NCBI GenBank assembly: GCA_951406725.2
Contig: OX597815.1
Location: forward strand, 95,046,001 to 95,110,000
Reading direction: 5' to 3'
DNA from: Octopus vulgaris
Taxonomy: Eukaryota
DNA length: 64,000 nucleotides
Shown: positions 820 to 47,500 of the stretch, piece after piece
Position numbering within the stretch: position 1 is the stretch's first letter
How the letters are laid out: each line of letters opens with the position of its first letter
The notes under the pieces: generated by a model
Databases searched by the model: none
The model's input: only the letters and a program-made list of their open reading frames with translations
Told to the model about the DNA's origin: nothing
Program-made: the position numbers and the translations under genes

Positions 820-2389
820 CGATTAAATAATTAAATTTAGAAAAATTAGAAGAAAAGTTTTTTTAAAAGAATATTTATATAGTAGTGTTCAGATTTAAGT
901 GGCATTCTGCCTTTCTCTGACTCCCTTGTTTGCACTTGTGTGTCGGAGGTCGTTGTGAGTTCTTGGAAGGGTAGTAGAGGAAGAAGGCTGGTGGGGAAAG
1001 GGGGATGGGAGAATCTGGGAGTGCCCTGATGGTCGTATTTTGAATGGTCAGTGGCGGCTGGCAGTCTCAGTTCAATTCAGGAGAATATTTATATTGACAG
1101 GCTTGTTTATAGAATTAGCGTAGGTGTTATACTAAAAAACATTAGTGACAAAGTTAAGGGGTAGGGGGTGGAGAAGTAGAAGAAGAAGAAGAAGAAGAAG
1201 AAGAAGAAGAAGGAGAAGGAGAAGATGACGATGATGGTGGTGGTGGTGATGATTATGACGACGATGATGATGATAATGATGATGATGAAGAAGAAGAAGA
1301 AGAAGAAGAAGAAGAAGAAGGAGGAGGAGAAGGAGAAGATGGTGGTGATGATGGTGGTGATGATGATGACGACGATGATGATGATAATGATGATGATGAA
1401 GAAGAAGATGAGGAAGAAGAAGAATAAGAAAAAAACAGAGAAGGGGGAATATGAATGGGTGTAAGTATAGCTATGAAGGGGCTGATTAGTAATGGATTCT
1501 ATGGAGTGTAATATTTGTGTGTGTATATATATTTTTTTCTTTTATTCTAAAGTTGAGGTATATTAATTGTTTGTCGTAGACCCGTTTAGAAGTGGCTTGT
1601 ATTTTGTAATAAAGAGATTTTCTTTACTTATTCGTTGTCTCGAGGTTGTATCGTCCCTAAATTGGTAGAGGGGAAAATTCTGAAGTTTGGTGTTTTTTTG
1701 TTGGCGCAAGTATCTATGTGTTGGCTAAAAGCTATTTTTCTGAATTTTTTTGGGGAATTTTTATCTGGGATCTGGACACCCGGAGCAGGTGAGCAGGGCC
1801 ATTCGTTTACGCAAACCGGATTTTAGTCGCATATCCCGCAATTGGGTCTTCCACATTTTTTTACTGTCGGCTTCTGTGTTGAGGAGTGAATTCGGGCTTG
1901 TGTAAGGAGACTTTTCATGGATCTAGGCTGTCTTTTGCTTTTTATGATCGTGTGTGTTTGGAGGATTGTGTTCATTCTGTGAACCCTAACTCTGTAAGCA
2001 GCCAGCGATACAATATCAGGAACACCGCCACTTCAAGCAGAGAAAGGATAAATCAACACCCACAGCATAGACACTGCAACCTCATCCCCACCCAAAGGAG
2101 TTACCAACGAAATCTTCGTCCCATTATCCGGTTAAACAACCATGCACAACAAACCCACACCACTTGCAATGATTACCAACAAAGGCCTCCTAGAACACCA
2201 CACCCGAATATGGGATATCGGGATGCTCTCCTCAATACTGCTCCAAGAACACACACCATAAATCACAACAGGAGACCCCTAATCAACAAAGAACAACTAT
2301 ATACTAGCTACCGTCCCAACCACCGCATTCATTTTTTAGACCCAATACGCAAACACAGAGACACAAGATAGCACCAAACAAGCAGGAGG

Positions 2390-4320
2390 AACCAAAAGTA
2401 ATAAAAATTATTAATCTAACTCACAAGGAACTAAGAGCAAACCAAATAAACATACTTTCCAAAGGACTCAAGTTTACACCCACCCCACAACACCCCAACT
2501 ACAATGAAATGAAAGAAGACATCGCAGAATTCTGCAGAAAATTAAGACTTACTGAGGAGCTATACGATAAATACAACGAGGACGAATCGTTAGCCAGAAA
2601 TAGGAGTAACTACACCCCCTCGAAAGGTAAGAATAAAACACTTGATGATTTCTGTGACCACATATCAAATTACCCATATCAACATATGCACAAACAAAAA
2701 CACAAACCAAACTTCAGCAAAAAAGAATGGGCTGAGTTGAACAAATTAAAACAAGATAAAACAATAACTCAAATTGAGACCCATAATAGCAGGTCCTGCA
2801 TGCGAAACCCACCGCCTCAGTAACATTTTAGACACCCTGTTAAAACCACTCCTCAAACATACCGTCAAAAGCTATATAAGGGACGACTTAGATATGCTCA
2901 ATCACCTACCGAATACTATAAACAAAAACACCATACTGGTATCCTTCGATGTAGTCAACCTCTACTCCAATATCCCCCACAACCTAGGACTAGAGGCAAT
3001 CCAATTCTGGCTAGAGAATCTCGCCAACGAACTACCACACCGCATCAAAAGAATTTGTGATAGAAGGGGTCAAATTCATCCTGGAAAATAACTTCTTCGC
3101 CTTCAATGACAACTTCTACCGACAAAAATCGGGGACTGCGATGGGTACACGAATGGCCCCCTCCTTTGCCAACCTAGTCATAGGATACCTAGAGATCAGT
3201 CTGTATCGTAAGGTTCTAGAAAGATATGGCAGCCCTTTCTCCATCTACATAGAAAACAACTGGAAGAGATATCTAGATGACTGTTTCATCCTTTGGCATA
3301 AAAATATAGAAAAACTCATAGAATTCCAGAAAATTTTAAACGGACTGGACGTAAACATCCAATTCACGATGGAATATAGCCAACAACAACTCCCCTTCCT
3401 CGATATAATCATTAAGAAAGCTAATAATATAATAGAAACAGACATATACTATAAGCCTACAGACTCTAAGCAATATCTTCCATTCAATTCATGCCACCCC
3501 AGACACACCAGGATGAATATCCCCTTCAATCTAGCAAAAAGGATATGCACTATAGTCTCTAACGCAAACACCAGAGACACACGACTACAAGAACTAAAAG
3601 ATACCCTAATCACCAGGAACTATCCACCTTCACTTATTGACAAGTGCATTCAACGTGCCCTTCAACTTAACATCAAGGAACTGAGACATCCCAAATCAAA
3701 GAAAAGCTTACAACCAAAAGCCTTACCATACATCTCCACACACAACCCTCTCAATAACGAAGCCTTCGACACCATCCTCCACAACATACCTCCTCCTAAA
3801 AAAAGACCACAGAATGAACACAATCCTCCAAACCCACACGATCATAAAAAGCAAAAGACAGCCTAGATCCATGAAAAGTCTCCTTACACAAGCCCGAATT
3901 CACTCCTCAACACAGAAGCCGACAGTAAAAAAATGTGGAAGACCCAATTGCGGGATATGCGACTATCTAATTGAGGGTTCTGAGTTCTCCTTCAAACAGG
4001 GACAACGGTTTACAGTGAAAAGCAACTTCACATGTGCTTCGGAGAACCTAATATACTCACTAACCTGCTCCGGGTGTCAAGAGCAGTACATAGGCCAAAC
4101 AAAAAATGGTTTGCGTAAACGAATGGCCCTGCACAGATCCCAGATAAAAATTCCCCAAAACAGAAAAATAGCTTTTAGCCAACACATAGATACTTGCGCC
4201 AACAAAAAAACACCAAACTTCAGAATTTTCCCCCCTACCAATTTAGGGACGATACAACCTCGAGACAACGAATAAGTAAAGAAAATCTCTTTATTACAAA
4301 ATACAAGCCACTTCTAAACG
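2390..4320 (+). pseudogene. Frameshifted Penelope RT + zinc-finger linker + GIY-YIG endonuclease ORF
   Basis: Motifs LSKGLKFTP, RPIIAG, VSFDVVNLYSNI, GTAMGTRMAPSFANL, RYLDDCF, LPFLD, YYKPTD, SCHPRH, CGRPNCGIC and NLIYSLTCSGCQEQYIGQT, spread over several frames (ORFs 2509, 2774, 3057, 3814). An internal deletion near 2770 removes the ADKG...LPKIHK region. Confidence 0.92.
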
Positions 4321-14773: not shown

Positions 14774-15017
14774 AAATTACATTCATATAAAAGAAGAAAA
14801 AGTAAATGTAGATTGGGAAGTTAATAATTGTTTATTATTAACAGCAAATTAATCATCTTCACCTAAACCTGCGTCAATACTCAGTAAATATTAAATATAT
14901 ATGAGCTGAGCATAATATCATCAGAGGGGAAAATATACCCTTGGATGTTTTATATGTATTTACGTATTCATTATAGCAGACCGAATGATATGGCTTATAT
15001 ATATATATATATATATA

Positions 15018-16637
15018 TAGTTGCGGCCAAAATGTTCAGAACGGCATTTTTTTCGTCAGAAAAGTAAGTATAAGTTTTTATCAAAGTAGCTTTATATTCT
15101 ATAATTTTCACAAACAATAAATACAATATCAATTGTTATTGTCATAGATTTTGGTGTAATTTGAGAGGATAATACAAAAGTTATAGATGATTTAGTGATT
15201 TACTGCAAAACCCATGGCGGCCAAAATTATCAGAACGGTTGAAAAAATAGCCAAATAATAAAAAAATTACAGAGAATACTGGAATTATTTAATATTTAGT
15301 GTGAAGCCCTTTAGCTTCAATCACACTCTGGCATATTCGACTGCATGAGGAAATTAAATTTTCAATTTCTTGCTGGGTGATCTTATTCCATTCTTCCTGA
15401 AGGGCATTCCATAATTGCTCACTTGTTTTAGGATTTCTGGCTTTTGAACGTTCTCCTAGAATATTCCATACATTTTCAATAGGATTGAGATCTGGGCTTT
15501 GAGCAGGCCAATCCATAACAATAACCTTTTCAGCCTTGAGGAAGTTCATGACCACCTTAGCCTTGTGACATGGGGGATTGTCCTGCATGAATATGGGTGG
15601 TCGCTTAGTTGAATTTCTCAGCACAGGCAAGACATAATCTTTTACAAGTTGTTTATAAACTCCTGCAGTTACCTTTCCATGCAATCGCACCAAAGGGCCC
15701 ACACCATCTCCAGATATCATCCCCCAAACCATGACACTTCCTCCACCGAATTTAACACTAGTCTTAAGGCATTTAGGCGACAATTTTTCACCTACTTTTC
15801 TACGAACGTACCTTTTCCCATCTGAGCCAAATAACATAAACTTAGATTCATCACTGAAATGCACCGTTTGCCATTTTTCTTGAGACCAAAACACATGTTT
15901 GGTTGCAAAGGTAAGACGACACTTTTTATTCTTGGAGCTGATCAGTGGCTTCACTGCAGGTGCTCTTGCTTGTAGGTCATGTTCAACTAAACGACGAGAC
16001 AGTTTTTCGAGATAAAGTTTTCTTCAATACAATGCTCATTTTCCGAGAAACAGCAGCAGCAGCAGTTTTAAATCTGTCCTTTTTAACCAACTTTACCATA
16101 GCACGATCTTCTCTCTTGGTCGTTTTTCTTGGCCTACCTGTAAACTTTCTTGCTTCACACGAACCACAATCATCGTAGACCTTAAGAATACCGTGTACAA
16201 TACTTTTTGAGTTGTTAACAATCTTTGCAATAGATCCAAAACTTAAATTATCCTTCCTTCGAAGCTTAATAATCTGCTGACGAATTGGTAACGGAGTAAG
16301 TGGCATTATATTAACAAAGTACACTGCAAATATTCTTACTAATGTTTAGTAAACGAACCGTCACGTCAACAAATTCAAAACATTAGAGTTCGCCGGTTAA
16401 ATATACTAAAACACGGAGTAAAAGCAACCGTTCTGATCATTTTGGCCGCCATGGGTTTTGCAGTAAGTCACTAAATCATCTATAACTTTTGTATTATCCT
16501 CTCAAATCTCAGGCAATAACAAATAATATCGTATTTATTGTTTGTGAAAATTATAGAATATAAAACAACATTGATAAAAAATTATATCTACTTTTCTGAC
16601 GAAAACAATGCCGTTCTGAACATTTTGGCCGCCATTG
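15018..16637 (-). mobile_element. Tc1-family DNA transposon with long IR-DR terminal inverted repeats
   Basis: TIRs of about 215-220 bp (15018-15240 and 16426-16637). Each carries the direct repeat GCGGCCAAAATnnTCAGAACGG at both ends. TA lies at both flanks. Confidence 0.93.
15289..16306 (-). pseudogene. Tc1 DD34E transposase, frameshifted near 15955-15985
   Basis: N-terminal HTH with GRPRKTT. Catalytic FSDESKF, FMQDN and SPDLNPIEN, with 34 residues counted between the second D and E. C-terminal GLHTKY. Confidence 0.92.
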
Positions 16638-16649
16638 TATATATAAGAT

Positions 16650-17255
16650 ATTTGTTGTGTAAGCCTAGAACAATGCGAGGTAGTACACAAAACAAAGTTA
16701 CAGTTTTACCTCGTATTTCTATATTTTGGAGCTATGACCCCCTTCTTCAGCATATTTAGAAAAAGTCGTGGGAAAAGTCGTTGCTCAGATGTGTAGGGGG
16801 GAAGGAGGTTGGTGACATGAGCAAACTGGTGTTGCTGCAGCAACCAGTCTGTTTCTTCTAGTTCCTTTCTATTGTTAGTGGCTGGTCTCAATTTGTTTAT
16901 AAGGAGAACTTCCATGTTGCGTTTTGCATGTTTCCATCAGGGAAGCCGAGAGCATTAGGAACAGTCTCATGGAAGCCTTCCTTATAAACGAACTGAGACC
17001 AGCCATTAGCAACAGCAAGGAACTACACGAAGCAGACTGGTTGCTATAGCAACACCAGTCTACGCATGTCACCTTCCTCCTCCACATATCTGAGTAACGA
17101 CTTTTTCTTACTGCCGCTTTTTCCAAATGTCCTGAATAAGGGGTCATGACCTAGAAATATAGAAATATATGATAAAATTGCAACTTAATTGTTTTCGTTT
17201 CCTTTTGTAATTTACTTTGTACTTTCTCGCGTTGTTCCGGCCTTACACAACAAAT
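16650..17255. mobile_element. Degenerate PLE foldback: inverted arms 16650-16916 and 16968-17255
   Basis: The arms are diverged reverse complements. The right arm encodes a GIY-YIG-type C-terminus (LMEAFLINELRPAISNSKEL). Decayed HHR motifs at about 17132-17161 (+) and 16718-16750 (-). Confidence 0.75.
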
Positions 17256-17284
17256 TTCATTAAGTTATACTACACAATGCTTCA

Positions 17285-17348
<64 letters not shown>

Positions 17349-17554
17349 TTTAAGTAGACAAATGAATTATCTTATTACGGATAATTCGAAAGATAACCGA
17401 TACCTGGGTAGGAAACTCACAACAGAAAGGGCACGATTGAAGTTACGACCATAGGGCATAAAATCCGTGCCTTAGTGCGGAAATTTGAAGTTTTATGTAT
17501 TAAGTACAGGAAAGAATGGAGCTGAACGAAGATTTAACAAAATTCCTTTATTTT

Positions 17555-17640
17555 ATTTTCGACATATGTTTCGAAGTCTGCAAAGTCCCTAATTCCGAGT
17601 GACTAAGGAGTCCATTATGCAGCTTTCTCTTCAGGAAAAT
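17555..17640 (-). ncRNA. Identical hammerhead ribozyme on the minus strand
   Basis: Exact reverse complement of 17742-17827. Confidence 0.85.
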
Positions 17641-17741
17641 CCAGGAACTTAATTCTCCAACAAAATGTTACTTTTATGGGCTCCTCGTGAGCAGTCATCG
17701 AAAAGCTTGTTGTGCATTTTGTTGGAGAATTAAGTTCCTGG

Positions 17742-17827
17742 ATTTTCCTGAAGAGAAAGCTGCATAATGGACTCCTTAGTCACTCGGAATTAGGGACTTT
17801 GCAGACTTCGAAACATATGTCGAAAAT
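17742..17827 (+). ncRNA. Type I hammerhead ribozyme with canonical core and GUC cleavage site
   Basis: ATTTTC-CTGAAGA-[long stem II, 17755-17809]-GAAA-CATATG-TC-GAAAAT. Perfect 6-bp stem I and palindromic stem III. Confidence 0.85.
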
Positions 17828-17878
17828 AAAATAAAGGAATTTTGTTAAATCTTCGTTCAGCTCTATTCTTTCCTATAC

Positions 17879-17918
<40 letters not shown>

Positions 17919-18164
17919 CACGTTGAATAAATAATTTTCCGTCTAACACAAATGCCGTTTGAATCATCTGTTTAAATTTACCTTTAAGCTTTTACTTCTT
18001 TCCGTCATTGGACTGAGGCCATGCTGGGGAACGGCCTTGAATGTTTATCATTGAACCACTCACAATTATATCTTCTACTGATCTATTATGACGAACCGCA
18101 ATGTTAAAGGGAGGAAAACAAACCAACACCGGAGAAACACTTAGACACAGAGATCTATCTATCA

Positions 18165-18221
<57 letters not shown>

Positions 18222-18367
18222 AGAATTTTGCTTCTCAACCACATGGTTCCGGGTTCAGCTCCACCGCGTTGCAACTTGAGCAAGAGTTTTCTACTATATC
18301 TTCGGGCCAATCAAAACCTTGTGTATGTGTGTGTGTGTGTGTGCGTGCGCACGCATGTGTGTGTATA

Positions 18368-19340
18368 CGAGGTAGCATCAAAAAGTTCCCGGACTAGTTC
18401 TGTAGCCCACCAACAGATGGCAGCGCACGACCTTCTTGCGGCTCTTCTTGTGGTGCTTACTTCGCAAGTTGTGAAATTTGCGTTTTTGTGATTACGTGAA
18501 TGCAGTAGTCTGCGATTTTTGTGATAGACAGGAAGTTGGTACAAAGAGCCAGCATGAAATTTTGCGATAAACTTGGGAAGTTTACTTCAGAGACATTCAG
18601 CATACTTTCTCAAGTTATGGGACGAGGCGATGGGTCGCACGCAATGTTTCGAGTGACACGATCGGTTCAAAAGCGCAAGAACATCCCTGGAAGACGATGA
18701 GCAATGTGAAAGACTTGACACAAGCGTCACCAATGGAAAGGTGGAAAAAAATTTGGAGGATAATCAACGACATTGCTGCTGTTGGTAATCTGTATTATGG
18801 GTCTAAATTAAACATGCGTATCTCTGCCAAGTTTGTACTCCGCCTACGTCGATTTCTTTCAAAATCTCCGAAAGCGTGCCGCTAATGACCCGTCCTTCAT
18901 TTCATCACCGCTAACGAAATTTGGGTCAACAAGCACGACCCTTAAACGAAGTAATAGTCGTCACAACAGAAGAGGCATTCATCTCCACGCCCGAAGCAGG
19001 CACGACAGAGCCGCTGCTCAATCAAGAGCAGCATGTTCATCAATTTTTCGACCTCTATGGTATTGTGCATCGAGAATATATCCCCCAAGGCTACTCCGAC
19101 AATCGAGAATTCTACAGCGACGTTTTGAAGCTTTTCAGGGAGAACATTTCGCGAATGCTACTGGATCTTTAGAACGCGAAGAATTAGATTCTTCACGACG
19201 ACAATGCACCCTGTCACTGAACCCTTCTCATTCGTGAGTTTCTCGCCAAAAACAACATGGTGTCGATACCGCACACGCATTATTCGCCAGATTGAGCACC
19301 TGTGGACTTCCATCTCTTCCCGAAGATAAAAATGCCACCC
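18368..19340 (+). mobile_element. Decayed mariner transposon; left TIR present, right end lost
   Basis: TA|CGAGGTAGCATCAAAAAGTTCCCGGACT terminus. Broken transposase with QRASMKFC..LGK, LEDDE, HREYIPQG, ILHDDNAPCH and YSPD*APVDFHLFPKIK. Confidence 0.85.
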
Positions 19341-19762
19341 AAATAAGGACGTTTATGTCTAGCAAATTCACTCACAAGGCTTTATACGGCCCGAGTGTGC
19401 CACGCAGTGGAAATGAACCCGGAATCATATCGTTGGGAAGCAAGCTTCTTACCACGAATAATTACATGTTTATATATGTGTGTGTTATTTTGTGTCGGTG
19501 TTTGACCCCCACCGCCGCTTGACAACCGGTGTTGGTGTGTTTACATACCCGCTTGTTAGTGGTTCGGCAAAAGACGGTGATAGGATAAGTACTAGGCTTC
19601 TAATAATAAGTACTGCGGTCGATTCATTCGAGTAACAATTAACAGATAAAAGATATACACACACATACACATACATACATGCATACATACATATATATAT
19701 ATATATACATATATATGTGTATATATAAATATACATATATATTTATATATAGATATAGATAT

Positions 19763-19807
<45 letters not shown>

Positions 19808-21143
19808 CACATATATACATACACACACACATATATATATATATATGTACATCTATATACACCCACATATATATACGTATATTCATATGTATATGTGTAT
19901 GTATGTATATCTAGAGAAAGAGAGAGAGCGAGCAAAGAGACACAGATAGAAATAGAACAGGGAGAGAGAGAGATACATATATACGACGAGTGTCTTTCAG
20001 TCGCCGCTTACCAAATTCACACTTCAGGCTTTGGTCGGCACGCGTGGAAGGTTCTACAATAGAAGGCACTTGTTTAGCATACTACTTACTGTGACTAGAT
20101 CCGGAATCATTTTGTTGAGAAGCAAGTTCCTAAACAGTCAAGCCTGTGTGTATTACAAATGATTATTAAACTACCATAATAGTTTCGTAATTTTAAGAGA
20201 CATTTTGGGAAAATAATTAAAGAGGAACGTATTATTTCGTATTAGTTAGGTGCTTATAAATACACATACATTGCTCTTTTTGCTTCTGCATCACCAACGG
20301 TAAAGTGTAATTTTCCAGAGTGCGTTCAATAAACATGAAAACGTTCTGACAAAGAAGTTTACTATGCCAGCATAAACCTTCAAGGCATGTAGCTAGGAAA
20401 CAAGTGACATTGATATATACGCTTAATACGAAGGAAAAAGAAAACAACTAAACATACAGCGGTGGAGGGTAGCGAGGCATTAAAAATTCAAACGAATGAA
20501 TGGAGGGGTTTAATGGCAAACAACATTGAGGAGAAATGAGTCAAGATGATAGTTAATGAAGACAACGATGAAAAGAGAGATAAAAGAGAAGTGTTTTTGA
20601 TTTATTTATGCAAGTGTAAATAGGATAAAAAGAATACAACGGTTAAGTATAAATATTCAATAAGGTTACAAACAAAAAAAATTGATGAGTTTTTACACAT
20701 AAACAGACGCAAGCACGCTAAGTTCACACGCGCGCATTCAAACATACGTGCATACTCAATCGTACGCGCGCAAACAAGCACGCGAATGTACACAAACGCA
20801 TGCGTCTGTATGTATGAATATATATATATATATATATATATATAAAGGGAGAGATAGAAGGAGAGGGAAGGAAAAGGAGAAATAGGTAGATAGGCAGATA
20901 GATAGATAGATACATGTATAATATATATGCATACATATACACATATATTGATGTATGCATTCACATATATTCACAGCCGTGGCTGTGTGGTAAGAGGTTC
21001 ACTCCTTAACCAGATGGTTCTGTGTTCAATCCTCTTGCGTGTCACCTCGAGCAAGTATCTCCTACTAAAGCCTCGGTCTGACCAAAGACTTGTGAATGGA
21101 TTTGGCAAACAGAAACTGAAAGAAGCGCATCATATATATATAT

Positions 21144-31429: not shown

Positions 31430-32643
31430 CAAAAAATTAACCCTAAACAGATAGATCCATCCCCTAATGTCATCGTCCAAGCTCGTCATACCTCAATGAT
31501 AACAAAGCAAAATACAAACCAGATCGGCTGTCACCCGGATCACCGAGTGCCGCGTAGACGAGCGGTGAACAATATTAGATGAAAAAATCAGCTACTGGTC
31601 CAAATCTTTCCGAGACACAGGAGCTGGAAGTGCCCCACAACCGGAATATTCCAGCAGATTGCCATCCATGCTCATCATCAAATAACCAAAAGGAAAAAAT
31701 AAAAATGGCCTAGCAGAGATAATAAAGGAGTTCTTAAGGCCTTTTATCGTGTCATGTATTTCCCCACAAATAAATCGAATACTGAACAAACCTGCTTAAA
31801 CTGGAGACAGAAACACCTTGAAGTAAGACCCTACATAGACAGTGACAAACGTGCTAATGTCAGAAGAAACATTGTGAAAAAGAAATTATTAACTCAATTG
31901 ACCAAATTAACCAATCAGTTGCAGCGAAAGATGATACTACGGAGGAAATAATTAGAGATCAACCCAGGTCTAATGAAAATGCAATAATGATTGAAAGAGT
32001 TAACGTAGCTGACAAGCAAAGTGAAATCCTCTCCGTGCCAACCATAAACACTAAGGCAGATTAAAATCAAATAGAGGGAAAATTCACACAGAAATCGATC
32101 CAACAGATCTAAAATATCAAATCATGATTGAATGGCTGAAAATTAAAGAAACCATTATGAATGAACGCGACACTCTCCCAAAAAATTCGCAATTCTAACC
32201 AAAACCTGAAAATAATTGAAATCCGCCTTGCACTTAAGGATATAATTTCAGCAAATGATGTTGATATTACAGATCTCAACCACCTGTACTAGGATTCCGC
32301 GAAAATCTCAACGATTCTATGTGGTAAAAAGATTAGAAAACGACGACATTCCCACAAGAAGCCTACTTGGCACGAGCGTATTCAACACCAAATTCAGCTA
32401 CTTAGGTCTAACATAGAATGTTTAAAAAACTTTAAGTTTGACAAGGCTATCAAACGAACAAAAAGCTGAAAATTAAAGAAAAATGTATGAAAACCATGCT
32501 TGACATCGATACTACCATAGAAAACATCAAGCAAAAGGTATCTGCTAAAGCTGTCCACATAGCATGAACTTCTAACTTGTTGTCTCTTGAGGTCTCTGGG
32601 TGAGATTTGGAGTCAACTTGTACAAATACAAGGCAAAAGTCAA

Positions 32644-32649
<6 letters not shown>
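31430..32649 (+). mobile_element. Decayed R4/Dong-like element: N-terminal ORF remnant joined to a probable 3' UTR
   Basis: Fragments WRQKH...RANVRRNIVKKKLL and KPTWHERIQHQIQLLRSNI resemble R4-clade N-termini. The segment runs straight into (TAA)n. Boundaries are approximate. Confidence 0.5.
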
Positions 32650-32711
<62 letters not shown>

Positions 32712-32794
32712 TAATAATAATGATAATAATAATGATAATAATAATGATAATGATAATAATAATGATAATAATAATGATAATGATAATAATAATG

Positions 32795-32838
<44 letters not shown>

Positions 32839-32967
32839 TATAATAATAATGATAATAATAATGATAATAATAATGATAATAATAATGATAATGATAATAA
32901 TAATGATAATAATAATGATAATGATAATAATAATGATAATAATAATGATAATGATAATAATAATAAT
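32650..32967. repeat. (AAT)n/(GAT) compound microsatellite
   Basis: Seen directly. It is the source of the poly-I/N/Y ORFs. Confidence 0.95.
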
Positions 32968-34322
32968 AAAGCAAGAACAAACATACAAATATTTAGGGAT
33001 AAATGAAGGCTCTGGTATTCAGCATGCAAGCATGAAAGAGAAGATCAGGAAGGAATGTTGTAGGAGAGTTCGTGCAGTCCTGAAATCTGAACTAAATGCA
33101 CGTAACAAGGTGTTAGCTATAAATTCCTTAGCAGTTCCAGTTGTTACTTATAGCTACAATGTGTTGAACTGGAATATGAGTGAAGTAAAGAATATAGATA
33201 GGAAAATACGCAAGCTGCTGAGTTGTAATAGGATGCACCACCCAAAGGCAGACGTAGATCGCCTTTACCTTCCCAGAGCCCAAGGAGGTCGAGGCCTGAT
33301 CCAATTTGAACTAGCTTACAAAACAACCACAATTGGACTGGCCAAATATCTCGAAATATCGAATGACTGGATGCTAAAGCTCGTGGAAAATCACGAGAGA
33401 CGAAAGAAGCTTCATTCTATCAAAAAGGAAAGCAAAAAATTTGCTATTGATCTCGTGCAGGATACTCAAACTGAACAACCCGAGGGAAGTACGGCAACTA
33501 TTGTTGCAAAGAAGGTGAAAATGATGGCAATGAAAAAAGCGCACGAGCAATTGGCTGATAGGTGGGAGGAGAAACCTCTGCACGGCAAATATGTGACCCG
33601 CAGCAAACAAGCTGATGTTGACCTGAAGCAAACCCATCAGTGGCTACGGAGCTCAGGGCTAAAAGCAGAGAGCGAAGGTTTCATCGTGGCTGCTCAAGAT
33701 TAAAGCCTATTAACCCGGAACTACCAGGCCAATGTGATGAAAAATGGAGCAGACCCAAAATGCCGATTCTGCAACGACATGATTGAAACAGTGGACCACC
33801 TAATCTCTGGATGTAAAGTCTTAGCACCAGTGGAGTATAAATTAAGACATGACAGAGTTGGCCAATATCTCCACTGGCTAATAAGTCGGCATTACAATAT
33901 CAAAACTGCCGACAAGTGGTATAATCACCACCCTGAGGCTGTAACTGAAGGAGAAAATGTAACCATTCTGTGGGACTTTCCAGTACATACAGACCATCAA
34001 GGCCAATAAACCAGATATTGTTGTGAAAGACCAAAACAATAAAGTTTGCTCATTGATCGACATGAGCATCCCCTGTGATCATAATATCTCAGCGAAAGAG
34101 TTTGACAAGCTCAGAACATATAAAGACCTACTCATTGAAATTGAGAAAATGTGGCATCTCAAGGCGGTTACAATACCAGTGATCGTAGGAGCACTAGGAA
34201 TGATCAAGAAGGGAACCGAAAATTATATGAGAATGATCCCTGGCTTACCATCCCTGCAAGAAGTGCAAAAGATTGTCTTAACTGGTACATCACACGTATT
34301 GAGAAGAGCATTGTCGATGTGA
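32968..34322 (+). pseudogene. R4/Dong ORF C-terminal half (RT thumb, CCHC knuckle, RLE)
   Basis: YKYLG, HPKADVDRLYLPRAQGGRGL, LHGKY, AAQD, CRFC...ETVDHLISGC, RHD, ILWDF, KPDIV...LIDMSIP and PVIVGALG. In-frame stop at 33701-33703 and a frameshift near 33990. Confidence 0.92.
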
Positions 34323-35319: not shown

Positions 35320-37435
35320 CGCGATTCGATTGTAAGTTATTTTATTGAACGATATTTCAGCAGTATGTCTGTCTTTGTCAAGTTCAAAATAAGAAGCGAT
35401 AAAAATTCAGAATTTAAACGTAAAGTATGAACGAGAGCAAGTAGCGTCCCCACGTTGATGGAATGACATCATGAGTTTTTAAGTCTTTAACAGGCGAAAA
35501 GAAAGAAAATAACAGAAAAAAGAAGACGACAGAAAAAAGGAAAGAAAAAGAGAGAAAGAAAAATATTTAATCAAACAGCTTTGTATAAACTTGATGATAT
35601 TCTGTCATCTTATTCATTCCTCCAGGGCGTGATGTTAATAACCTGCAAACATATTTCTCCTCATACATTCTGAGAAGTGAAAGTGAAGTAGATTCAGAAT
35701 ATTTTCTGAGAATATGCACTTTCAAGTCTTCTTCAAAATTGCAACCGCTTGAAACGAAATGTTCAGCAAGTTCTGTCGAATTACTGTTATTGTGCCTGTC
35801 GTCGATTCTGTACCCATTAAACCTTTTGTTTGATTGTTCTGTTGTGCAACCAACATAAATTAAGTTGTTTCGTGCATTCTGCAGCGTACACCATATAGGA
35901 ATCTTTACATGTTCCACCTTCTGTATAAATCATAACATTTCTGCTATGATTTCTGATGGAGTTCACTTCACTCATGTTGTTGCCCAATGAACAGGGCTTA
36001 CCTCTCTTGCGGCTGTTCTTTAAGGTACAGCGTGTAGATACTCCAATGTTCGTTTTCTTGGAGTCAGATATAGAGGTCAATAATTCTCTTATATTCTTAT
36101 TCCGTCTAAAGGCTACAATAGGCGGCTGAGGAAATATCTGTTTGAAACGAGGATATTTTATCGCCACATGCTGGTAACTTTCATGCAACACTTTTGAAAT
36201 GCCAGCGAAATGTCGGTGCCAGTTAATCACTGAAGGAATTCTGTCTTCTATTGTATTGTGTTTGCTAAAATTATGCATATAGGTTTGACCATCTTTGCCA
36301 ATCTTAGCTATTTAATTTGCTATTTCCTTTTATCGTGATTCACTGTAATCGCGTTTGACAAAATGACATACAAAAGCATTTGCATGTTTCCAGTAATCCC
36401 CTATGTCAGTACAAATGCATTTTATCCTCAAAAATTGGGATTTCAGATTTGACCGAATAAGATGATGTGGATGATCGGAGCGGCAGTAGAGATAAGTGTG
36501 GGATAACGTGGGCTTGCAAAATAATTCTGTCTTTATTCTGCCTCCAGAAAACCTGACTTTTGTGTCCGAAAATTCAACGCTAGTTTTGGAAAAACTAGAC
36601 GTAAATTTTATGTTGGACTTAAAGCCATAGTTTCTAGGATAACAGTCACAGAAATGCAAGAAGTCCATTAAACTATCCTGTGATACTTCCCAGTAAAAAA
36701 ATACATCGTCAATGAACCGTAATCAGAGTTTTGGTTCATGACCATGAAGGGATTTGAATGTCTTCAGTAAGTGTGACTCGAATTTCGTCATGAAGACGTT
36801 TTCAAAATTAACTGCCATGGGGGTACCCATGCCGCAACCCTTCGTCAGGTGGTAAAATCTTTGTCTAAACTTCATTGTGTTACTTTCTAAAACGAACCTC
36901 AATAATCTACAGAGAAAATTTGATGGAATACTTTTGTTTGACCGCTTTTCGAAGGCATCCTTGCATGCTTCTACCCCCTCATTGTGGTTAATATTGTTAT
37001 ATATGGAAGAAACTTCCATGGTTACCAAAAAAAAGTTCTCAATATGGCCTCGGCGCTTGAAAAAGTTATTGATTTTAGATACAAAATCAAACGTATCCCG
37101 AATATAGGAACTTTATCGTTTTGCGGCGGGGAGTATAAAGCCATCCAGCCATTCCGAAATTTTGGCCGTGCAACGTTCATATCCGCTGCAAATTGGGCGT
37201 ATTGGAGGAAATCTTTCGAACTTTTTGTGTATTTTAGGGAGACCATAAAATACAGGTGTTCTTCTTTCTGGCCTTAACACCTTAGATTCAGCCTTATTAA
37301 CGAAATTGTTTTCCTCCATTTCCAGAATTATTTTGTCAAGCTCCTCTCTGTAATTGGAGTTTGGATCGACAGGTAATTCTTCAAATGAAGTTTTGTCATG
37401 TAAAACTTCACAAGCCGAAATATACTCACTTTTGT
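35320..37435 (-). mobile_element. Second Penelope-like element, 5'-truncated and multiply frameshifted
   Basis: PVFYGLPKIHK..RPICSG, GCGMGTPMAVNF, RFIDDVF, SDHPHH and the GIY-YIG motifs MVYAAEC/LIYVGCT, ELAEHF and PGGMN (ORFs 35567-37319). Confidence 0.9.
35345..35387 (-). ncRNA. Minimal hammerhead ribozyme, U3/A8 variant, at the 3' end of the second PLE
   Basis: Minus strand: TTGAAC-TTGACAA-AGACAG(acata)CTGCT-GAAA-TA-TC-GTTCAA, with a perfect 6-bp stem I. Confidence 0.72.

Positions 37436-45084: not shown

Positions 45085-47500
<2,416 letters not shown>

Follow-up and report, generated by a model that had tools for sequence, protein, structure and literature searches.

A foldback insertion with a hammerhead motif on each strand in Octopus vulgaris, very probably two truncated ends of a Penelope-like retrotransposon

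A foldback with a type I hammerhead motif on each strand, found in the genome of Octopus vulgaris (contig OX597815.1), is very probably made up of two truncated copies of the end of an autonomous Penelope-like retrotransposon (PLE), joined head to head within a (TA)n run, and is likely to be a dead by-product whose two hammerheads are predicted to be masked in read-through RNA. Comparison with other copies in the same genome demonstrated that the arms, the tail and the spacer all derive from the pseudo-LTR (pLTR) of the element, in agreement with the Penelope-derived origin advanced in the original prediction for this DNA, and it also revealed the ORF of the parent, a different junction at each locus and a tail present on one arm only. 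Positions are those of the window, the whole stretch of 64,000 nucleotides analysed, and loci retrieved from the genome carry labels beginning with L. The whole insertion measures 534 bp (17351-17884) and lies between two (TA)n runs, with the following features:

17288..17345, no strand: left (TA)n run, read from the sequence, likely target site
17351..17493, minus strand: one-sided 143-nt tail covering +68 to +210 relative to the ribozyme cut (natural copy L041 matches it at 97%)
17494..17667, minus strand: left arm, element end from -106 to +67 from the cut, running on into the tail (inverted-repeat and copy comparison)
17555..17640, minus strand: type I hammerhead motif, the same 86-mer as on the plus strand, with cleavage predicted between 17561 and 17560
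17667..17668, no strand: head-to-head junction, blunt and free of microhomology, unique among the sampled loci (copy comparison)
17668..17714, plus strand: 'spacer', element sequence -153 to -107 (query positions 175-395 match another copy at 100%)
17715..17884, plus strand: right arm, element end to the first terminus (ACTTAAT, about +62 to +67; inverted-repeat and copy comparison)
17732..17842, plus strand: predicted distal extension of stem I, AAGTTCCT at 17732 with AGGAATTT at 17835 (pair probabilities 0.5-1.0; 93% of cells paired in 15 copies)
17742..17827, plus strand: type I hammerhead motif, predicted cut after 17821 (from sequence; core kept in 14 diverged copies)
17883..17915, no strand: right (TA)n run, read from the sequence, likely the other half of the target

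The inverted arms (17494-17667 and 17715-17888) comprise 174 nt each, are 98% alike and stand 47 nt apart. Their three mismatches include the two already noted over 170 bp in the original prediction, and none falls inside the ribozyme. When folded as a whole, the 395 nt reach -311 kcal/mol (z -43.7), a value equalled by none of 100 shuffles. Together with the identical 86-mers, these results bear out the initial description of a foldback with a hammerhead on each strand, whereas the likeness of the arms agrees with the young age proposed for it and the lack of any overlapping ORF of at least 120 aa with its reading as non-coding. On the other hand, only the right-hand limit of the element originally drawn at 17498..17884 holds, since the insertion reaches 17351 on the left through a tail that had been missed, and the supposed spacer is element sequence.

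Pseudo-LTRs were recognised from partial tandems in which the upstream pLTR runs into the ATG (L061, L062, L067, L072 and L073), and on the basis of these junctions the 143-nt tail corresponds to the 5′ leader of the next tandem unit, stopping about 55 nt before the ATG of the ORF. The 47 nt of the spacer come from further upstream in the element itself, and many genomic copies align at 97-100% with the right arm and spacer together. The TTAA present at both arm ends could recall piggyBac or a MITE, a reading that was rejected, given that TTAA forms part of the terminus of the element and that the left arm runs on as the tail. As a separate and speculative observation, CAG/GTATCG in the tail and a downstream CATATACAG could bound an intron of about 68 nt, the AG being missing in three diverged copies.

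A detailed view of the plus-strand motif shows a 6-bp stem I (ATTTTC at 17742 with GAAAAT at 17822), the core CTGAAGA at 17748, a 55-nt stem II (17755-17809) closed by G-C, GAAA, a palindromic stem III (ACATATGT) and GTC with the cut after 17821, which are the parts that had been recognised at the outset (perfect 6-bp stem I, GUC triplet, palindromic stem III and a stem II of about 55 nt). The copies on the plus and minus strands are identical 86-mers, and they contain every hallmark of a type I hammerhead: the CUGANGA core, GAAA, NUH, G10.1-C11.1 and three helices with an open stem I. The motif was read by eye against the published core. The search with Rfam hammerhead models suggested along with the original prediction gave no match at E<=10 in 15000-20500, where only generic hairpin (miRNA) models matched, below their gathering score, a result for which the long stem II and the minimal stem III may account. 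A pattern of standard length likewise detected no hammerhead anywhere in the window, as a stem II of more than 50 nt is beyond its reach. Among 14 copies, some of them only about 77% alike, 10 of the 11 core columns are invariant, compared with 54% of all arm columns, and the variable positions N7 (A 11, T 3) and H17 (C 7, A 7) show letters that the motif tolerates. Covariation for the ribozyme fold is weak, as 25 of 500 shuffles reach its score, and in the arm alone the hammerhead fold lies 5.7 kcal/mol above the MFE. We read this as a putative ribozyme kept by the parent element. An 8-nt deletion in the outer hairpin of stem II was also seen in the pLTR subfamily of L040 and L063; their core is intact, which suggests that this outer hairpin is dispensable.

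Searching the genome itself (2.8 Gb in 227 contigs) with the foldback yielded 2158 candidates, of which the best 40 were scored, and copies followed upstream lead into a long ORF. Long unbroken frames were found in L064 (3462-6173, plus strand), L072 (1714-4434, minus strand), L061 and L065, the first two including the ATG and encoding 904 and 907 aa, respectively. Motifs in the alignment indicate that the parent has a single ORF with a PLE-type reverse transcriptase (RT) plus, at its C terminus, a GIY-YIG endonuclease (EN). In this line, a profile built from L064, L072 and 14 homologs matches a Penelope RT that is itself positive for Pfam RVT_1 (E 2e-6), and Pfam GIY-YIG was matched by four of the 16 alignment members (best E 2.5e-4, no cut-off shown), together with a weak EN profile match (probability 33%). 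Pfam searches with the L064 and L072 proteins and with ORF pieces gave no RT or GIY-YIG match, and a PDB sequence search with the alignment profile returned nothing relevant. Nearly all of the 120 homologs listed are unnamed, and the only named animal one is an Argonauta protein. The family comprises several subfamilies about 75-98% alike, has 285 exact matches to the ribozyme 24-mer in the genome and is abundant in the Logan contigs of four sequencing runs; no piece spanning the foldback appeared among the matches listed there, where the joint at 17667-17714 is the element's normal continuation. Judged by its sequence, the family is an EN+ PLE, with the single ORF, the pseudo-LTRs and the inverted truncated copies with a one-sided tail all present. 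No paper on the parent family, or on a 5′-end hotspot at the start of a pLTR, was found in a search covering mostly the open literature, with Repbase outside its scope, so that a family entry may already exist.

Within the PLEs, the closest relatives are those of the Hydra clade, which are described as having a single ORF with a C-terminal EN, DKT, no CCHH, CxxC/CxH, a canonical hammerhead and insertion into (TA)n (PMC8557442). The parent family shares all of these traits: DKT replaces DKG (QSDKTRN in L064 and L072), CCHH is missing, and CxxC and CxH flank the conserved E and N (ICALCNSE...N...RCTH in L064). It may differ in an RWL that takes the place of RWK (RIRWL aligns with the RWK/RWR of homologs), and it does differ in lacking the CxCX5C linker. 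A CxC linker before GIY-YIG is absent from all 18 copies read through, whereas CxC-x(3-9)-CP is present in 111 of 115 complete homologs, and its position is occupied by an Asn/Ser-rich stretch of 157-181 aa. Adineta Penelope ORFs also have an in-frame N-rich stretch between RT and EN (PMC3846280), but here it is found in all 18 copies and coincides with the loss of the zinc linker. The unit, of about 3.5 kb, is longer than those of the Hydra clade, which are given as under 3 kb, and the hammerhead sequence listed for Hydra-1_Obim (2507 bp) differs from that of the parent, which makes it another family (PMC8557442). The family is thus likely a new Hydra-related variant, placed there by its motifs and without the CxCX5C linker. 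A fragment of another Hydra-like element (L015:3-548) keeps the CxC...CP linker (SCSCRNKELCP), from which it follows that both linker types coexist in this genome.

Copies of the element end were sampled twice. The first sample, which is unbiased, took every locus among the first 78 of the 285 matches to the 24-mer, amounting to 62 insertions. Opposed arms occur in 34 of them, while the remaining 28 have no opposed arm by the thresholds of the script (reaching +30 or beyond, with at least 22 nt aligned). The second comprised 40 of about 48 further loci, drawn from the first 100 of 452 matches to a pattern downstream of the cut. In both samples almost every 3′ end adjoins (TA)>=5 (92/96 and 54/58, versus 3.9% of random 36-mers in the window), and six single copies of the first sample have (TA)n at their 5′ side too, which suggests that the run was a pre-existing target. 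Moreover, the arms of one insertion diverge by a median of 1.3%, compared with 5.8% to other copies, and are the closer ones in 44 of 45 pairs, indicating either one source RNA or later homogenisation.

The same copies inform about the state of the template. Among the first 100 of the 452 downstream-anchored matches, two start exactly at the cut (a slight undercount, as the pattern misses copies with T at the first place), three begin no more than a few bases upstream of it and the other 95 extend across it, so that integrated cDNA would come mostly from uncut RNA. Both arms at the locus likewise cross the cut site, and their template was therefore uncut when copied. In two tail-bearing arms (L124:215-426 and L131:227-438) the 5′ end coincides exactly with the cut of the hammerhead, which hints weakly at cleavage of some templates.

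Mapping of 5′ ends against 53 natural copies revealed a hotspot at -158 to -144, where 15 of 47 arms at risk stop (p 3e-8, with the interval chosen on this sample). It was found again in the second sample, mostly of the sister subfamily, with 11 of 24 arms (p 1e-7 against the rate at -143 to 0). The right arm at the locus starts within it, at -153, so that the start of the spacer lies in the hotspot, behind a TATA/Inr-like motif, with the TATA box itself outside. Counted from the cut, TATAAATA begins at -175, TCATTA at -156 and CCAAT at -194, and a TGACGTCA-like motif is kept across subfamilies. It is fairly probable that the hotspot marks run-off of the RT at the 5′ end of the transcript, the start being placed here by motifs, although several diverged copies have a degenerate TATA box and nine arms end at -200 to -159. 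A possible but rather doubtful alternative is that a U-rich tract behind a small hairpin makes the RT fall off, or that cDNAs are joined there through AT-rich microhomology. The region is indeed U/A-rich in the subfamily of the window, and weaker clusters of 5′ ends at -120 to -105 and -36 to -18 indicate that the RT also stalls at U-rich or structured sites. However, the hotspot persists in the second sample, in which the sequence is different and less U-rich, and the stop rate drops from 0.025-0.042 per nt inside it to 0.002-0.003 at -320 to -159. In addition, the TATA and Inr-like motifs, separated by about 20 nt, are reminiscent of the promoter that has been proposed for the pLTR (PMC3846280).

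As regards how the foldback was formed, the tails follow a nearly strict rule. In 33 of the 34 pairs of the first sample, a +67 end is combined with a +210 end (binomial p 2e-9 against 0.5), and the second sample gave mixed pairs in 15 of 15 cases by script, or in 19 of 20 once five pairs dropped by the script are judged by eye (four mixed, namely L142, L146 twice and L147, and one not, L125). The exceptions are L040, which is complex, and L125, in which a (TA)n spacer is flanked by two +67 ends. The latter (L125:380-600) is a perfect palindrome with no tail, either an exception to the rule or an assembly artefact. In the mechanism that we favour, the element's protein would cut both strands of a (TA)n run, each 3′ end would prime reverse transcription at one of two AU-rich RNA sites, +67 and +210 from the cut, and the two cDNAs would stop early and then be end-joined; the stop of the right arm at -153 would represent run-off at the 5′ end of the transcript. 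The two-primer step is, in our judgement, the likely one. Support for it comes from the observation that neither arm is consistently the longer in the first sample and that, among the 33 mixed pairs, ten show a tail arm whose start lies downstream of the cut, seven of them beyond +67.

An unlikely competitor is the folding back of a single template that primes itself, as proposed for the inversion by Arkhipova et al. 2013 (PMC3846280), followed by trimming of one arm by the endonuclease, so that the tail is left on one side, in line with the resolution by EN put forward by Craig et al. 2021 (PMC8557442). Among the 34 junctions, 19 overlap by 1-8 nt, five are blunt, eight have short gaps or inserts and two lie far apart; the overlaps speak for a fold-back, as do some junctions that fall in palindromes or in stem II (L047, L142) and the variants shared by the arms. 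Against it, the junction at 17667/17668 is one of the blunt ones and has no palindrome, and the seven tail arms that start beyond +67, among the ten that start downstream of the cut, share no sequence with the other arm and would need large extra trimming. Furthermore, cleavage and extension of both strands, with synthesis beginning at two internal sites, were observed by Frangieh et al. 2024 (PMC11167929).

More tentatively, and with somewhat poorer prospects than its single steps, a wider picture can be drawn in which a Hydra-related family inserts into (TA)n despite having lost the zinc-finger linker credited with guiding the targeting of microsatellites, and its hundreds of stubs form an in-vivo record of transposition, where an asymmetric dimer might prime the two strands at different sites (+67 and +210), with uncut RNA of a single source as template and with cDNAs begun in the leader running off at the transcription start.

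It is most improbable that the foldback is a young non-autonomous ribozyme mini-element, similar to a retrozyme or a MITE, moving as an arm-spacer-arm unit. At least 15 distinct loci do match all 395 nt at 80-100% (among the best 40 of 2158 scored), and the hotspot makes foldbacks of about 400 bp recur and resemble a family, the similar size of these look-alikes being explained by the search query together with the hotspot. Nevertheless, the junctions are different in all 34 pairs of the first sample and in the look-alikes too, which means that each foldback is a separate insertion product of the autonomous element and contradicts the family of non-autonomous units originally envisaged. The genomic comparison proposed at that time did find similar-sized loci and the autonomous PLE, but a unit with the same junction does not recur. 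The spacer, moreover, is element sequence, and no tandem array of monomers of the retrozyme type exists at the locus, with a single two-unit tandem (L024) among the loci seen. A stub without ORF, TATA box and upstream motifs is also unlikely to be transcribed or moved as a unit.

Were the foldback read through from outside, the antisense arm would be made first on either strand, and the RNA prefix ending at 17827 is predicted to be already fully paired. Forcing the hammerhead fold in this RNA costs 142 kcal/mol on either strand, versus 5.7 for the arm alone, so fold prediction agrees with the earlier idea that a read-through duplex masks the ribozyme. Hammerheads of animal PLEs with a short palindromic helix III showed no cleavage as monomers in the case tested (PMC4209133). 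The order of the arms, this cost and the poor cleavage of PLE monomers together make cutting of host RNA unlikely, and the further suggestion that the insertion could cut a host pre-mRNA in either orientation finds no support, as the antisense arm comes first and the cost applies to both strands. No host exon was detected at the Pfam cut-off among 120 short frames. A 174-bp duplex, if transcribed, would be a substrate for ADAR or Dicer, and dsRNA editing of the foldback is possible in that event. This suitability is what would favour the idea that the host has co-opted the foldback, either to cut RNA or for regulation through dsRNA, which is very hard to credit for a young insertion (arms 98% alike) lying among transposon remnants, whose ribozyme is predicted to be masked and belongs to a class that cleaves poorly as a monomer (PMC4209133). 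Least credible of all is an assembly artefact in which a read folded back on itself, because, even if assemblies typically run into trouble at a near-perfect palindrome flanked by microsatellites and L125 looks like such a case, the arms here differ at three positions and show the family-typical asymmetry, with the tail on one side, a rule followed by dozens of other loci.

The anatomy of the insertion is a known one, and there is no sign of a new ribozyme element at the locus. Insertions of EN+ PLEs with an inverted 5′-truncated copy and a one-sided tail have been published (Craig et al. 2021, Fig. 2, PMC8557442; Arkhipova et al. 2013, PMC3846280), and for the Repbase entry Penelope-13_HM both strands are recorded as carrying a hammerhead, together with an inverted 5′ copy (PMC8557442 supplement). 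The octopus foldback has in common with them the head-to-head copies, the tail on one end, the pseudo-LTR hammerhead and the (TA)n target, and differs in a tail of 143 nt that lies wholly in the 5′ leader, instead of the 30-40 bp from the ORF start described in those sources, and in that both copies are too short to keep the ORF. For the Poseidon element PAc of Anolis, it has been reported that synthesis starts at two internal sites on either side of the tail, that both strands are extended, that a dimer is predicted, that the hammerhead is protein-assisted and not needed for insertion, and that the template is mainly unprocessed RNA (Frangieh et al. 2024, PMC11167929). The octopus family resembles it in the AT-rich target, in two presumed RT starts that enclose the tail and in a template that would be mainly unprocessed; the clade is another one, the starts are 143 nt apart and upstream of the ATG, and the evidence is genomic rather than biochemical. 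Animal non-LTR retrozymes are likewise non-coding, carry type I hammerheads and are related to PLE pseudo-LTRs (PMC7229834; bioRxiv 10.64898/2026.07.22.740005), but they consist of direct tandem repeats of a monomer, in contrast with the single inverted pair and unique junction of this locus.

Altogether, the locus is ordinary retrotransposon debris, whereas its parent family is modestly informative. The near-strict presence of one tail per pair, along with some arms that do not overlap, favours two primers over a fold-back, and the genomic counts extend the two-start-site result obtained in vitro. For the role of the hammerhead, it matters that copies derive mostly from uncut RNA. The linker zinc finger of the EN has been linked to (TA)n targeting (Craig et al. 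2021, PMC8557442), and a family that lacks this linker and still lands in (TA)n argues that it is not required. As unbroken ORFs are at hand, the questions of linker, inversion and hammerhead can be tested in vitro.

The surroundings contain further mobile elements. A Tc1/mariner element at 15010-16645 has TIRs of 142 nt (89%) and DDE_3 and HTH_Tnp_Tc3_2 frames on the minus strand. It is followed by an older, MITE-like foldback at 16803-17081 (possibly about 16650-17260), with 114-nt arms that are 83% alike and 51 nt apart, in which no hammerhead pattern was found and whose inverted similarity seems, by eye, to reach further outward. Two broken Penelope-like elements of another clade, at 1883-4275 (plus strand, with a Cys-rich linker before the EN) and 35567-37112 (minus strand), show weak Pfam matches to RVT_1 and GIY-YIG. 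Finally, remnants of non-LTR retrotransposons lie at 32591-33703 and 45113-47061; they include L1/Tx1-like sequence with a zf-RVT match and, judging by its motif, sequence that we take to be RTE-like.
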